DNA of 64,000 bases from Clostridia bacterium (GTDB taxonomy: Bacteria > Bacillota > Clostridia > Christensenellales > CAG-138), in contig JAFWJN010000050.1 in NCBI GenBank assembly GCA_017514685.1, positions 9,836 through 73,835 of the forward strand. The letters are read 5' to 3'. Positions within the stretch are counted from its first letter, which is position 1. Every line of letters begins with the position of its first letter. Positions 58,244 to 64,000 of this stretch are shown here, piece after piece. The position numbers and the translations under genes are program-made. The notes beneath the pieces are model-generated. The model made no database searches. It saw only the letters and a list, made by a program, of their open reading frames with translations, and was not told where the DNA came from.

Positions 58244-59281
58244 ATGGGTTTGTTTTTCTCTTCCGATATCGGGCTGGATCTCGGAACCAGTAATATCATT
58301 GCGTATATCAGGGGAAAGGGGATCGTTCTTCGCGAGCCGTGCATTGCAGCACTTGAACGGGGAACCGGCAAAATTGTCGCTATCGGACAGGAAGCCAAGG
58401 ACATGGTCGGAAGAGCCCCGGAGAATTTAATGATCATCCGCCCGATGCAGGATGGAGTTATTGCCAATTTTGATGCGACGGAAAGGATGCTGACACAGCT
58501 TTTCAACCGGATAGTCGGAAACCGAATTTTTTTCAAGCCTCGTGCGGTTGTTGCGGTTCCTTCAATGGCGACCGAGGTTGAGAAGCGTGCAGTCATTGAA
58601 ACGACAGAAGGCGCAGGGGCAAGATATACATTCCTGATAGAGGAACCGGTGGCGGCAGCAATCGGTGCGGGAATCGATATCACGGAACCGAAGGGAAATA
58701 TCGTACTGGACATCGGCGCGGGAACCTGTGATATGGTCGTCACTTCAATGGGAAAAGCGGTGATTCATGATTCTCTCAGGATCGGTGGAGATAAGTTCGA
58801 TCAGGCAATCGTCCGTTATTTCAAGCGCCAGCACGGCGTTGTGATAGGATTGAATGCGGCGGAGGATCTGAAGATCCGGTACGCATCGGCTTATCCGAGA
58901 GCTGACGAGATCAAGATGGATGTGCGGGGAAGATCTTTGGGAAGAGGACTTCCGGTCGCTCTGGAACTCGGCTCTAACGAACTGACCTTTGCGCTTGCGG
59001 AGCCGCTGCATAATATCGCCGAAGCACTGAAAGACACATTCGAGCAGACCCCGCCGGAACTCGCCGGAGATATTGCGACGAGAGGAATCTGCCTGACCGG
59101 CGGAGGAGCACAGCTATATGGGCTTGACCAGTATATCGCGGAACAGACGGGAGTTCCTTGCTATGTGGCGGAGGATCCGGTTGCATGCGTTGCAATCGGA
59201 TGCGGAAAAGTCCTTGAAGATCCGCGCAAATATGACGGGGTTTTGTATGATTATCGCAGAGGCGACTACTATGAGGAATAA
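58244..59281 (+). CDS. mreB: rod shape-determining protein MreB/Mbl
   Basis: Starts DIGLDLGTSNIIAYIRGKGIVLREPCIAA and contains IRPMQDGVIANFD and VPSMATEVEKRAV. Actin-fold motifs are present. Confidence 0.95.
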   Translation: MGLFFSSDIGLDLGTSNIIAYIRGKGIVLREPCIAALERGTGKIVAIGQEAKDMVGRAPENLMIIRPMQDGVIANFDATERMLTQLFNRIVGNRIFFKPRAVVAVPSMATEVEKRAVIETTEGAGARYTFLIEEPVAAAIGAGIDITEPKGNIVLDIGAGTCDMVVTSMGKAVIHDSLRIGGDKFDQAIVRYFKRQHGVVIGLNAAEDLKIRYASAYPRADEIKMDVRGRSLGRGLPVALELGSNELTFALAEPLHNIAEALKDTFEQTPPELAGDIATRGICLTGGGAQLYGLDQYIAEQTGVPCYVAEDPVACVAIGCGKVLEDPRKYDGVLYDYRRGDYYEE

Positions 59282-59297
59282 CGGGAGTGACGGAAGC

Positions 59298-60260
59298 ATG
59301 ACGGAGACAAAAGGAAAAAAAGCATTGTCGCTCTGTATTCTGCGGGTGCTGGAACAGCATGCATCGGAGCAGAGACCGATTTCCACCAAGCAGATTATTG
59401 AGTTTTTGAAAGATGATTACGGGATGATAGCGGAAAGGAAAGCTGTCGGACGGAATCTGATTCTGCTTTCGGAAATGGGATTCGGGCTTTCAACCTATCA
59501 TGATAATGGAAAAGGTTATTATCTGACATCGGCTGCCGATCCAACAGCGTTCGACCCTGTCATTTATGACGCGCTCTTAAGAGCTCCGGTCAGTGAAGAA
59601 ACGGATCGGAGAATTCGCGCCATGCAGCCGAAAATTCCGATTTACTCTGTAAAGGAAACACCGCAGCTGCTCAGGATGGAGGTGTTTGATACGATGGAAC
59701 GTCTCCGCACAGCAATCGAAGAGCAGAAACAGGTCACTTTCTTATATCATACTGCTCAGTCAGATGATGGAATGACCGCGTCTCCGGATGCAACCTATAC
59801 GATCTCTCCTTATGCTTTGTTTATGGCAAATGATCGATATTATGTATTGGCTGCCGTGTCGGGTTATGGAAGGCTGCTTCATTTCCGTTGTGATTATATC
59901 CGTGATGCAGTGCTTTCAGAACTGCCTGCAAGGGCAAGCTCTGAGCTTGCAGAATGCCGCGGGGGTCTGGATGTTGTCGGATATGTCAATCGCGCTGTAT
60001 TTCATCAGGATACAGCGGAACAATATTCACTGCTTTGCGCGGGCCGTCTCGTTGATGAAATTTCAGATTGTTTCGGGCGATCCGCGAAACTGATTCCGCA
60101 GGGGGATAATGTTCTGGCGGAAGTAACGGCACCGTGGACAGCCGTACGAAGATTTCTGCTGAACAATCTGTCACAGGTTACACTTTTAGAGCCGGAGATC
60201 CGGCAAAGACAAATCCGGGATGAACTGAACAGGGCACTGTCCCTTTATTCGATCCGGTAG
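59298..60260 (+). CDS. WYL-domain transcriptional regulator (wHTH + WYL + C-terminal extension)
   Basis: N-terminal wHTH (LCILRVLEQHASEQRPISTKQIIEFLKDDYGM). WYL-like core (VTFLYH...ISPYALFMANDRYYVLAAVSGYGRLLHFRCDYIRDA). The ATG at 59298 lies 17 nt after the mreB stop. Confidence 0.7.
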   Translation: MTETKGKKALSLCILRVLEQHASEQRPISTKQIIEFLKDDYGMIAERKAVGRNLILLSEMGFGLSTYHDNGKGYYLTSAADPTAFDPVIYDALLRAPVSEETDRRIRAMQPKIPIYSVKETPQLLRMEVFDTMERLRTAIEEQKQVTFLYHTAQSDDGMTASPDATYTISPYALFMANDRYYVLAAVSGYGRLLHFRCDYIRDAVLSELPARASSELAECRGGLDVVGYVNRAVFHQDTAEQYSLLCAGRLVDEISDCFGRSAKLIPQGDNVLAEVTAPWTAVRRFLLNNLSQVTLLEPEIRQRQIRDELNRALSLYSIR

Positions 60261-60341
60261 CAGATGGAAATGTTTATAATGATGACGCAAATCTGTTACA
60301 TTTCCCTGTTATAATGATAATCGGATCATGAGGTGAAAAAT

Positions 60342-62300
60342 ATGAAGGAGAAGTTTCTGAACGCCATGAAAACGGTCTGGAGCAAAATCGTTTCATGGAC
60401 AAAAACCGCCTGGAACAAAACAGTTTCATGGACAAAGGAAAAGGTCGTTCCATGGCTTAAGGATAAAGTGGTACCTGCGCTGAAAAAGGCATGGACATTT
60501 CTAAAGCAGAAAGGAAAAGAACTGCTGCAGGCGATTCCTCCGACAGTCTCCAGAATTATCCGGACAGTTGAAGGATGGCTGAGCAAAGCACTTGGACATA
60601 TCTCCGGAAAGATGGGGGAAAAAGACGGCACTGAACCGAAAAAGCAGCGCGTCAGCCGCCCGCTTCTGTTTCTGGTTCTGTTTGCAATGTGCGCGGTAGT
60701 GATTGCAGGACTGATTCTGACGATTGTTTTCTCAGCCAGATTCTTCGCCTGCGTATGTCATCCCTTGAACAGAGGAAATGATCCGATTGAAATGACGGAG
60801 ACTGCGGTTCCGGGGACTCCTTCAGCAATAGCGGAGCCGACGCCTACGATCAATCCGGATGATACTTACCTCGGCGGAGAAGTATATAAAAAGGGTGACG
60901 ATGATGAAACGATTGCCGTCGTTCAGCAGAGACTGATGGATCTCGGATACATGGATTCTGATGAACCGACGGAGCATTTCGGAAATATTACATTGGATGC
61001 TTTGAAACAGTTCCAGAAGAGAAACGGTCTGGAGGAAACCGGTGAACTGGATGAAACAGTTTACGCCCTGATGTTCAGTGATTCCGCAAAGGAGTTTTTC
61101 ATGCAGATGGGCGATGAAGGAGATGCGGTTGAAGAAATCCAGGAGCGTCTGTACGAACTGGGTTATCTGGACAAAGACAGCAGAACAGGAACATTCGGCG
61201 AGAAAACGGAAGCGGCCGTGATTGCTTTCCAGACAGCGAACGCGCTTCATGCGGACGGGCTGGTAGGTGTTCAGACCAAAGAACAACTGTTCTCCGATGA
61301 AGTAATCGGTAATGTTTTCAAGAGCGGAGACAAGGATGATTCCATCATCGAATATCAGAATCGTCTGATTGAACTGGGATATTTAGGAAGCAGCTATGAT
61401 GCAACCGGAAACATGGACTCCAAGACGGTTTCCGCAATCAAATCATTCCAGGAGGCGAACGGACTTGTCAAAGACGGCGTTCTGGGACCGTCAACCATGA
61501 ATCAGCTGACTTCCAAGGATGCACTGAAATATGCGCTTCGTCTGGGAATGAGCGGAAGCAAGGTAAAAGATATGCAGAAACGCCTGAAAGAACTCGGCTA
61601 TCTGAGTTCTTCCCAGGTTTCAGGATACTTCGGAGATGAGACAGAAGAAGCAGTCAAACTATTCCAGAAGAGAAACGGCCTGTCTCAGGACGGAGCGGTT
61701 GGTTCCAAGACGCTTGAAAAGCTGAACAGTTCCGGAGCAAAACGTGCACCATCCACGGCAACAGCGAAGGCAACGAAGAAACCGACGGCAACAAGCAAAC
61801 CCGGAAGCAAGACTACACCGAAAGCAACAAGCAAGCCCAGCGGCAAAACGACCCCGAAACCAACCGCCAAGCCGACTGCCAAACCGACTGCAACGCCGAA
61901 TACATCTGCGGCAAAGGTCGAAAAGCTGATTCAAATTGCAGAAAGCAAACTGGGATGCCCATATGTACGCGGTGCGAAAGGACCGAATCGATTCGACTGT
62001 TCCGGCTTTGTGTACTGGTGTTTGAACAAGGCCGGCGTAAAACAGGGATATATGACCAGTATTACCTGGAGGACCTGCTCCAAGTATAAGAGAATCACCG
62101 GATGGGGAGAATTCAAACGCGGGGATATTATGGTGTTTAAGGGAAGCAGCATGTCGGTAGGGCATGTCGGAATCTATCTCGGAAACGGAAAGATGATCGA
62201 CGCTTCCAGCGGTGCAGGACAGGTCAGAATCACAAAAACGATTCTTTCCGGTTCCTATTGGAAGCAGCATTTCCTGATGGCATATAGAATCTGGAACTAA
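60342..62300 (+). CDS. membrane-anchored peptidoglycan hydrolase: W/K-rich cytoplasmic N-terminus, TM, four PG_binding_1 repeats, K/P/T linker, C-terminal NlpC/P60 (C40) endopeptidase
   Basis: TM segment LLFLVLFAMCAVVIAGLILTIVF. Four repeats of the type GD.D..I..(I/V)Q.RL.(D/E)LGY(L/M)...G.FG..T..A...FQ..NGL..(D/T)G. NlpC/P60 Cys in FDCSGFVYW and His in GHVGIYLG. TGAGGTG RBS before ATG 60342. Confidence 0.85.
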   Translation: MKEKFLNAMKTVWSKIVSWTKTAWNKTVSWTKEKVVPWLKDKVVPALKKAWTFLKQKGKELLQAIPPTVSRIIRTVEGWLSKALGHISGKMGEKDGTEPKKQRVSRPLLFLVLFAMCAVVIAGLILTIVFSARFFACVCHPLNRGNDPIEMTETAVPGTPSAIAEPTPTINPDDTYLGGEVYKKGDDDETIAVVQQRLMDLGYMDSDEPTEHFGNITLDALKQFQKRNGLEETGELDETVYALMFSDSAKEFFMQMGDEGDAVEEIQERLYELGYLDKDSRTGTFGEKTEAAVIAFQTANALHADGLVGVQTKEQLFSDEVIGNVFKSGDKDDSIIEYQNRLIELGYLGSSYDATGNMDSKTVSAIKSFQEANGLVKDGVLGPSTMNQLTSKDALKYALRLGMSGSKVKDMQKRLKELGYLSSSQVSGYFGDETEEAVKLFQKRNGLSQDGAVGSKTLEKLNSSGAKRAPSTATAKATKKPTATSKPGSKTTPKATSKPSGKTTPKPTAKPTAKPTATPNTSAAKVEKLIQIAESKLGCPYVRGAKGPNRFDCSGFVYWCLNKAGVKQGYMTSITWRTCSKYKRITGWGEFKRGDIMVFKGSSMSVGHVGIYLGNGKMIDASSGAGQVRITKTILSGSYWKQHFLMAYRIWN

Positions 62301-62317
62301 AACATAGGGACAACAAG

Positions 62318-62350
62318 ACAGGAGATGAAATAGTCATCTCCTGTTTTTTG
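62318..62350 (+). terminator. rho-independent terminator after the NlpC/P60 gene
   Basis: ACAGGAGATGA-AATAG-TCATCTCCTGT followed by TTTTT. Confidence 0.85.
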
Positions 62351-62466
62351 TTCGGAAAAATGTCAATTGAATTTTGATGTGATCAACTTAATGACCAACA
62401 GAAAATGGTTATGCAAAAAGCATTAATGCATATGCAAGAGCATGAAAAAAGGCTGAATTTGCATAT

Positions 62467-62537
62467 TAATCCACATCATCCACAGAGTTATCCACACTCA
62501 GAGGTGCGAAATATGGGCAAAAAACAGGTTATCCACC
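62467..62537 (+). promoter_or_regulatory. cluster of four same-orientation DnaA boxes
   Basis: TAATCCACA (62467-75), TCATCCACA (62476-84), TTATCCACA (62488-96, perfect) and TTATCCACC (62529-37), compared with the consensus TTATCCACA. Confidence 0.6.
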
Positions 62538-62665
62538 GCATAAGGGGGGCTGTATATACGAGTAATACATGATGCATGAAAAGACAAAGATACAGTATTT
62601 ATTCGTATTTCATGCATCTTCATGGAAAATGGAATGCATAGAAAAAGCAGAGAACGATAATCGGA

Positions 62666-63784
62666 TTAAAAAGTATAAACTCTTTTGACTCGAGGGAGAA
62701 GAGCAGTCGTAAATGCACAGGCTTCATTGGCGCCGCAGGCTGCTGCCTGCTTTTGAGCGCTGAGAAAAATGCCTGACTCGTCATATCCGAAGAAGGTTAT
62801 CAGATCTCCCGGTGTACATGGTAGGTCACCGATATCGACAAGCGTATGATCCATAAAGCTATATAAAAGAGAGCAGGTCTGTCCATGAAGAAGAACCGGA
62901 AGATGCTGTCTGACGGCGTTCAGATCGATTCCATCTCCGTAACCGATTCCGATGGAAGCGATGCGGGTATCTTTTAAAAGGGTCAAGCCGTCTCCATATC
63001 CGATTTTTTCCCCTGCTTTGCGATGCCAGATACCGGTTACAACGGTCTGCAAAGTGGCAGCTTCGAGAATGTTCCCGTTTGGCCGAACAGGATTGCCCCA
63101 CATCAGACCTCTTCCGACCCGGATCGCGTCCAGAGCATATTCCGGATACAACTCGCTTGCTGCAGAGTCACAGATGTGGCGGAGAGGAATCGAAAACCCA
63201 TGCGATTCCAAAGCGTCTGATAAAGCCATATAGCTTTGAAATTGGGCTTTACATCTGTCCGCATCGAAAGGATCTGCAAAATGGGAATAGGTTCCTTTCA
63301 GAGAGCAGAATGGGCTGCAAGAGTTAAGAGCGGAAATAAGAGGATTTATTTCATCGGGGCTTATTCCGAAGCGATGAAGACCGGTGTCAAATTTAATCTG
63401 CACAGAGACTTTTTTTCCAAGCGCTTCGGCTGCACGTGACATAAGGGAGAGATCGGAAAGACTTCCGACGGTCAAGGTGAGATCGGAAAGAATTGCCGGT
63501 TTATACTGAAAGGGAAGAGCCGGTCCGAGAATAAAAATGGGAAGAGAAATACCGCTGTTCCGAAGCTGAAGACCTTCCTCTATATATGCAACAGCAAAGC
63601 CTGCGATTCGGTCCGAAGAACATAATGCTTTTGCGACAGGAACCAGACCAAGACCGTAAGCGTCAGCTTTTAAAACCGGAATCAATTTTGCCCCACATGG
63701 GAGATGAGAGATAATGCCGGCAGTGTTTTTCTGAATCGCAGAGAGCGAGACAATGAGTCTTGAAAAGGAAATGGAATCTTCCAT
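62666..63784 (-). CDS. alr: alanine racemase
   Basis: PLP-lysine motif PVLKADAYGLG, plus SHFADP, IGYGDG and C-terminal FMDHTLVD. 372 aa, with RBS GAGAGG. Confidence 0.85.
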   Translation of the reverse strand: MEDSISFSRLIVSLSAIQKNTAGIISHLPCGAKLIPVLKADAYGLGLVPVAKALCSSDRIAGFAVAYIEEGLQLRNSGISLPIFILGPALPFQYKPAILSDLTLTVGSLSDLSLMSRAAEALGKKVSVQIKFDTGLHRFGISPDEINPLISALNSCSPFCSLKGTYSHFADPFDADRCKAQFQSYMALSDALESHGFSIPLRHICDSAASELYPEYALDAIRVGRGLMWGNPVRPNGNILEAATLQTVVTGIWHRKAGEKIGYGDGLTLLKDTRIASIGIGYGDGIDLNAVRQHLPVLLHGQTCSLLYSFMDHTLVDIGDLPCTPGDLITFFGYDESGIFLSAQKQAAACGANEACAFTTALLPRVKRVYTF

Positions 63785-63813
63785 GGAAACAACCTCTCTA
63801 TTTAATACGAAGA

Positions 63814-63842
63814 AATCATATCACCGAAAATGCATAAAATCA
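63814..63842 (-). promoter_or_regulatory. candidate alr promoter
   Basis: On the minus strand: -35 TTGATT, a 17-nt spacer (contains TTATGCATTT), then TG-extended -10 TGaTATGAT. Confidence 0.5.
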
Positions 63843-63905
63843 ACAAATATCAATGATAAGAACGTAAAAAATAAATAAAAATACACTAATAATGCATAAA
63901 TATAA

Positions 63906-63934
63906 TTGACAAGCAAACTTGAAAGGCGTATACT
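63906..63934 (+). promoter_or_regulatory. strong sigma-A type promoter
   Basis: -35 TTGACA (63906-11), 17-nt spacer, -10 TATACT (63929-34). Followed by RBS AAAGGAG and ATG 63968. Confidence 0.65.
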
Positions 63935-63967
63935 GGCGTCAATTCCAATAAAGGAGCGTAATTCAAT

Positions 63968-64000
63968 ATGAAAAAGTTTTTTGTAATTCTTCTTGCAGCG
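63968..64000 (+). CDS. 5' end of a gene encoding a probable secreted or membrane protein (truncated by the window end)
   Basis: MKKFFVILLAA is a signal-peptide-like start. Only 11 codons are visible. Confidence 0.4.
   Translation, partial: MKKFFVILLAA

Follow-up and report, generated by a model that had tools for sequence, protein, structure and literature searches.

The window analysed here is a 64-kb stretch of DNA (C24:9836-73835) from Clostridia bacterium GCA_017514685.1, contig JAFWJN010000050.1. The source genome (G000) is a 2.37-Mb draft in 61 contigs, and its family, referred to below as the host family, consists of uncultured gut and rumen Clostridia. Two convergent genes in the window, one for an NlpC/P60 hydrolase of 655 aa with four PG_binding_1 repeats (60333-62300, plus strand) and the other for alanine racemase (alr; 62666-63784, minus strand), were confirmed by Pfam. 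Between their stops, at 62300 and 62666, lies a non-coding spacer of 365 bp with a GC content of 36.2%, compared with 47.1% for the window. Its left limit is the intrinsic terminator of the NlpC/P60 gene (62318-62350, plus strand), which has an 11-bp stem and a T-run.

Within this spacer, four DnaA boxes lie in the same orientation in 71 bp of the plus strand, with starts at 62467, 62476, 62488 and 62529. Box 1 (TAATCCACA, 62467-62475) and box 2 (TCATCCACA, 62476-62484) are contiguous and have one mismatch each, and box 3 (TTATCCACA, 62488-62496), which is perfect, follows 3 bp after box 2. Box 4 (TTATCCACC, 62529-62537) has one mismatch and starts 41 bp after the start of box 3, from which it is separated by 32 nt (62497-62528) that include an A6 tract at 62519-62524. 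The initial annotation, made from the letters of the window, had reported four such 9-mers in an AT-rich spacer between the NlpC/P60 terminator and the 3' end of alr; the sequences and coordinates of the boxes are correct, and the stops, the Pfam matches and the hairpin bear out the setting. A perfect 10-bp inverted repeat (ATGCATGAAA / TTTCATGCAT, at 62572-62581 and 62608-62617, with a 26-nt loop) occurs between box 4 and the alr stop, and its AT-richness and wide loop rule it out as a standard terminator. No obvious intrinsic terminator was found for alr, so the alr transcript may run into the box array.

A scan of the 2.37-Mb genome identified 529 DnaA boxes at no more than one mismatch, 14 of them perfect. 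Only four places in the genome have three or more boxes within 150 bp, and one of these is oriC, where six boxes occupy the dnaA-dnaN spacer (C46:21803-21896). The others are the four-box cluster in the window, C48:27678-27747 and C46:34583-34612, which makes the four-box cluster one of only three outside oriC. When the 529 matches were re-placed randomly, four boxes fell within 71 bp in 0.025% of trials (P ~2.5e-4 genome-wide), and the four-box event did not occur at all in 12 Mb of Markov sequence trained on the AT-rich windows of the genome. The genome-wide scan, a check proposed in the initial annotation, thus finds dense clusters to be few and not common by chance. Chance grouping of DnaA-box-like words in AT-rich DNA would be helped somewhat by the 36% GC of the spacer, which raises the frequency of such words, but it is refuted by the re-placement probability, by the Markov null and by the retention of the cluster across 50 genera (see below), and we give it practically no weight.

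The other two non-oriC clusters of the source genome lie outside the window. The one at C48:27678-27747 reads TCATCCACA-GAG-TTATCCACA-G-TTGTCCACA, together with TTATCCACC in inverted orientation, and lies in a spacer of 745 bp. The convergent genes on either side, identified only by eye, would encode a GH2-like glycosidase and a CBS-DHH pyrophosphatase-like protein. This cluster matches the model R1 described below in part (37.7 bits), and is without TG(C/A/T)ATA flanks. The cluster at C46:34583-34612, TAATCCACA-TCATCCACA-AAC-TTGTCCACA, is located 13 kb downstream of dnaA and upstream of a lipoprotein/LRR gene (gene X), and it shares its first 18 nt exactly with boxes 1-2 in the window.

A BLAST search against 40 relatives recovered stretches of ~137 bp, 72-80% identical to the spacer, from five species of the same genus. 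These orthologues keep the four boxes and a gap of 32-33 nt between boxes 3 and 4, and the sequence of the gap differs. The exact pattern TCCAC-N3-GTTATCCACA-N30-35-TTATCCAC was found in 29 of the 151 host-family genomes, representing 14 of 50 genera, and nearly always once per genome; the reversed control pattern was found in none of the 151. We aligned 27 loci from the pattern matches (alignment A1). Boxes 2-4 were imposed by the pattern used to collect these sequences, so their invariance in A1 is partly imposed, whereas box 1 and the flanks were free to vary. In A1, box 1 has the form nTATCCACA, with positions T23, C24, C25, A26 and C27 at least 90% conserved, and box 2 (tCaTCCACA) is directly contiguous with it. 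The 3 bp between boxes 2 and 3 are usually nAG, box 3 is TTATCCACA, and box 4, TTATCCAC(C/A), comes after 31-35 nt in which no sequence is conserved other than an A/T run toward the 3' end, present in most orthologues.

A sequence-only model built from A1 (R1) was then applied with a cut-off of E <= 0.001. It matches 147 of the 151 host-family genomes (~97%), including 101 of the 102 high-quality ones, and all 50 genera. At least 96 genomes match at E <= 1e-10 over nearly the full length, normally with one full copy each, and most host-family genomes also have one or two partial matches, to the triple-box part alone. The match in the window (62454-62564, plus strand; G000:C24:72289-72399; 71.9 bits, E = 4e-20) is the sole full-length copy in the source genome. 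In other families of the same order, a weaker four-box version occurs in 30 of ~116 genomes. As judged by comparison of these sequences, the four boxes are the core of a non-coding module of ~170 bp that is kept across the whole host family. The initial annotation had named conservation of the spacer in relatives as a further check: the boxes are kept and the spacer sequence drifts. Its description of the boxes stands, but it missed the family-wide ~170-bp module around them, with its phased repeats and, in relatives, its usual position within 0.15-47 kb of dnaA. In an all-species scan, the box pattern also matches ordinary oriC arrays adjoining dnaA in many phyla. Box geometry alone is therefore not specific, and it is the flank repeats together with a non-dnaA context that define the module.

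Among the hexamers of the orthologous regions, the strongest enrichment is that of TATGCA/TGCATA, with 26 copies observed and 1.1 expected, rather than that of any DnaA-box word. The 365-bp spacer has 5 copies, compared with 0.2 expected, and nowhere else in the genome are they clustered as densely. The motif was generalised to TG(C/A/T)ATA and its offsets were tallied in 33 host-family loci. On the left, it is present at -62 from box 3 (within 1 bp) in 18 loci and at -36 or -28 in 21; on the right, it is present at +21/22 from box 4 in 19 loci, at +43/44 in 17, and at +55 or +64 in some. Copies at fixed offsets share one orientation, and the period of the right flank is ~22 bp. These offsets are fixed even though the repeats were absent from the search pattern.

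In the window, the leftmost of these elements is a TATGCA at 62410-62415, which reads TGCATA on the minus strand and has a conserved offset of about -78 relative to box 3. Orthologues L006, L007 and L008 also have the element at this offset. The palindrome TGCATATGCA (62427-62436) supplies accessory repeats at -61 and -57 from box 3, and a TGCATAT repeat (62460-62466, plus strand) abuts box 1 at -28 from box 3. Right of the boxes, TGTATAT (62551-62557, plus strand) lies at +22 from box 4, and the degenerate repeat TGCATGA (62573-62579, plus strand), at +44, also forms the left arm of ATGCATGAAA / TTTCATGCAT, the inverted repeat described above. TG(C/A/T)ATA is absent from the true oriC regions of four genomes and from 88 of 120 matches to the same box pattern in other taxa, and a motif score of at least 3 is reached, among the 120 box-pattern matches, by host-family members only.

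Two other identities for the repeats were considered. Some copies in other genera (GGTGCATAA) could be read as weak inverted DnaA boxes (TGTGNATAA), but the whole set could not: the two bases expected to be TG under this reading are not conserved overall, and true oriC lacks the motif. An identity as promoter elements for sporulation-sigma or sigma-A was rejected as unsupported, since the spacings are wrong for either. The AATGCATA octamers that an earlier first-reader note listed around alr are at the positions given there. That reading made no link between repeats and boxes, a link now provided by the fixed offsets around the boxes, and the octamers inside the spacer belong to the conserved module, independent of alr. 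AATGCATAA motifs are also present at 63831-63836 and 63893-63898, in the promoter region between alr and a divergent solute-binding-protein gene, and in four copies in an AT-rich promoter region on contig C23 (G000:C23:8588-8660). Given these occurrences in promoter regions outside the module, the TGCATA word may also serve a general regulator.

Neither dnaA nor dnaN is encoded in the 64-kb window. In the source genome dnaA is at C46:~20.4-21.8 kb, where the GC skew of C46 switches sign, and the true oriC is the dnaA-dnaN spacer (L001:2516-2756; G000:C46:21797-22037). This spacer has six boxes at no more than one mismatch, with CTA-type DnaA-trios (CTACTATTACTACTTC) and AT-rich sequence behind them. 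The dnaA-dnaN spacers of three relatives have the same arrangement. It fits the definition of the basal unwinding system of oriC (PMC8287927). Beside the module, alignment A1 has no conserved column after box 3 or box 4 that could represent DnaA-trios or an unwinding element. The skew of contig C24 is positive over its whole 109 kb, with no switch on the contig and no change at the cluster. The module is not a replication origin. The initial annotation had rejected oriC for the cluster, and the origin is indeed on another contig, in the dnaA-dnaN spacer at the GC-skew switch. Upstream of dnaA, the source genome has a minus-strand AAA+ gene (DNA polymerase III gamma/tau-like), not rpmH, and in G076, from a related genus, a perfect parS-type palindrome, TGTTTCACGTGAAACA, is found in the 104-bp spacer just upstream of dnaA (L051:5845-5949).

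The genes around the module differ among lineages. In two genera (eight loci) the left neighbour is the 3' end of an NlpC/P60 gene. A cwlD-like amidase gene in divergent orientation is located 84-172 bp to the left in eight loci, and tsaD (= gcp) adjoins the module in four. The right neighbours also vary, and include pyrG and alr. Neighbours and orientation thus change between genera while the module is constant, which indicates that it is independent of neighbouring genes.

Thirteen relatives have the module and dnaA on a shared contig, at distances of 0.15-47 kb. The module is closest to dnaA in G067 (genus g44), ~150 bp upstream of the dnaA start. The distance is 3.4 kb in G088, 6.6 kb in G076, 9 kb in G008, 11 kb in G009 and G071, 12 kb in G103, 12.5 kb in G145 and 31 kb in G158, and in four complete genomes of 2.4-3.4 Mb it is 31 kb (G125), 36 kb (G051), 43 kb (G100) and 47 kb (G184). 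In the source genome, when C24 is placed beside C46 in agreement with the skew, the module is at least 57 kb from dnaA, a value that is only a lower bound on the distance to oriC because the assembly is a draft. In another family of the order, two complete genomes have their weaker four-box clusters at 423 and 528 kb from dnaA. Closeness to the origin, a relevant factor where titration depends on dosage, is thus not a general rule.

The gene order in G008 and G009, which are from the same genus, is dnaA, dnaN, ..., mreB, WYL regulator, NlpC/P60, module, gene X, gene Y. In the source genome, genes X and Y are 9-13 kb from dnaA, with only the triple-box next to X (C46:34583), and the block from mreB to the module is on C24. 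The full module in the neighbourhood of X in G008 and G009 indicates that a rearrangement has split this region in the source genome. A single inversion between the C24 and C46 clusters that separated the module from dnaA was considered, but the orientations do not fit so simple a model. The block of mreB, wHTH-WYL regulator and NlpC/P60 hydrolase (58244-62300 in the window) is syntenic with the module in two genera, and lies 6-11 kb from dnaA in G008, G009 and G076.

We propose that the module is a conserved cis-acting DnaA-binding site away from the origin, ~170 bp in length and with one full copy per genome, and assign this reading a probability of roughly 0.6. Most likely, it serves the replication initiator DnaA as a site of docking or control. 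We infer both the binding of DnaA by the module and any effect on replication, and by analogy the module may act as a DnaA sink or regulator, through titration or modulation. A promoter-independent cluster outside oriC had been suggested in the initial annotation, and the position between convergent 3' ends, in one of three non-oriC clusters of the genome, agrees with this. Potentially, the three head-to-tail boxes, with starts 9 and 12 bp apart, could nucleate a DnaA oligomer, and the fourth box, four helical turns off, would close or extend the complex across a spacer of fixed length and free sequence with an A/T tract inside. The phased TG(C/A/T)ATA repeats on both flanks might recruit a second, putative factor or give weak extra contacts. 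The assembly would then be a DnaA sink or regulator of the B. subtilis type, with the effect of damping or tuning initiation.

Among described elements, the closest are indeed the DnaA-box clusters outside oriC in B. subtilis. Six such clusters bind DnaA, and their joint deletion leads to early initiation; most of them (five of six) are near oriC, and their neighbour genes differ in different Bacillus species (PMC3245932). Like these, the module is a dense intergenic array of consensus boxes away from the unwinding site, has neighbours that vary by lineage, and in the four host-family loci noted above is beside tsaD (= gcp); in relatives it may also count as mostly near oriC. It differs in that it is one dominant, rigid unit per genome rather than six loose clusters, in that its sequence and spacing are conserved family-wide, and in its phased TG(C/A/T)ATA flanks, which are not described for B. 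subtilis. DnaA binding and a replication phenotype are, for the module, predictions.

The same box grammar is found in B. subtilis oriC1/incAB and in Clostridioides difficile oriC1 (PMC7561715). The module of G067 is at exactly the position of such a dnaA-upstream cluster, whereas in most genera it is 3-47 kb away, and here at least 57 kb. Because it is located between unrelated genes, it is neither a dnaA promoter nor a contiguous part of the origin. Its tandem co-oriented pair, with a gap of at most 3 bp, also resembles the basal unwinding system of oriC (boxes 6 and 7 plus DnaA-trios; PMC6669920, PMC8287927), but the module boxes are not followed by a conserved trio run or AT-rich unwinding element. 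Elsewhere in the host family, the regions upstream of dnaA are poor in boxes and have no box cluster. Together with the position in G067, this suggests that the ancestor of the module was possibly the box cluster that bipartite Firmicute origins carry upstream of dnaA.

In E. coli, datA, DARS1 and DARS2 are non-coding DnaA-box loci of fixed architecture that are conserved within a bacterial family. In addition to the boxes they have binding sites for accessory proteins, and they stimulate ATP hydrolysis or nucleotide exchange on DnaA. The module resembles these loci, as an architectural analogy only, in its fixed-length spacer with an A/T tract and in its co-conserved accessory repeats. It has no sequence relationship to them and its accessory motif is different; Firmicutes are not known to have IHF or Fis. 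Tentatively, the module could be a dedicated DnaA-control locus of the whole family, a counterpart of datA/DARS in Clostridia with a putative repeat-binding partner, formed from a dnaA-upstream origin half that was freed. In that case, a repeat-bound protein and a DnaA oligomer on the four fixed boxes might switch or sequester the initiator. We regard so specific a function as possible, albeit doubtful.

A DnaA-binding site could also act mainly on transcription, as a DnaA-dependent promoter/operator or roadblock for a neighbour gene or a short transcript, with titration as a by-product. Candidate targets are dnaA, the cwlD-like amidase gene, gene X and an unannotated short transcript. The position ~150 bp upstream of dnaA in G067 is the classic one for autoregulation, the cwlD-like gene starts 84-172 bp away on the opposite strand in eight loci, and several B. 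subtilis clusters are also DnaA-regulated promoters. In the source genome, however, the module lies between two convergent 3' ends, and its neighbours and orientation shift between genera while the module itself is unchanged. An Rfam scan of 61500-64000 at E <= 1 returned nothing, and no sigma-70-like promoter was found in a scan of the spacer. Neither of the ORFs that cover the boxes (55 aa and 41 aa) matches Pfam, a 38-aa frame right of the boxes is without a ribosome-binding site, and small ORFs, this frame included, are not conserved. The consensus fold of the right flank from five genus members (-4.6 kcal/mol) has 0 compensatory pairs. The small DnaA-regulated transcript that the initial annotation offered as an alternative thus finds no support in the Rfam and sigma-70 scans, ORF conservation or covariation, and we consider a mainly transcriptional role unlikely, although in some lineages the module may work as a promoter or operator. 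Quite improbable, in our estimate, is a displaced second half of a bipartite origin that cooperates with the dnaA-dnaN unwinding region via DnaA looping over kilobases. Arrays of the same geometry (box, 3 bp, box, 30-35 bp, box) adjoin dnaA in many phyla, on both sides of the gene in a Blautia genome, which would suit an origin half, as would the box-poor dnaA-upstream regions of the host family and the location of the module upstream of dnaA in G067 and 3-47 kb away in 12 others. Set against this are the at least 57 kb that separate it from dnaA here and the 423-528 kb in the other family, and we know of no precedent for origin halves that act over such distances. Furthermore, there are no conserved DnaA-trios or unwinding element beside the module, and the GC skew does not switch at it.

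The TG(C/A/T)ATA repeats might themselves be primary and bind a protein other than DnaA in the manner of iterons, either a nucleoid organiser or an initiator of the replicon type. The boxes would then be helpers, which is the part that DnaA boxes play in iteron plasmid origins. This would account for TATGCA/TGCATA being the top enriched hexamer (26 vs 1.1 expected) and forming its densest cluster in the genome here, for the fixed offsets and the ~22-bp spacing of the right flank, and for the absence of the repeats from four true oriC regions and from 88 of the 120 pattern matches in other taxa. Iteron-like sites nevertheless seem very improbable to us: no rep-like or mobile-element gene is linked to the module, its neighbours are core chromosomal genes (here mreB, the WYL regulator, NlpC/P60 and alr), every genus has a single copy per genome, the skew is undisturbed, and the boxes are better conserved than the repeats. 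We therefore retain a DnaA-binding site away from the origin as the preferred reading.

To our knowledge, the control of initiation outside oriC is understood only in a few models, namely datA/DARS in E. coli, the B. subtilis clusters and one cluster in Streptomyces. The occurrence of a rigid module in ~97% of the sampled genomes, whatever its neighbours, argues for an important role in these uncultured Clostridia, and probably for one of greater specificity than passive titration. Conserved together with the boxes, the phased repeats suggest a putative partner protein, and the fixed geometry of the module makes it a ready substrate for DnaA binding and pull-down work. The module is also a marker for the annotation of origin regions in metagenome-assembled genomes.
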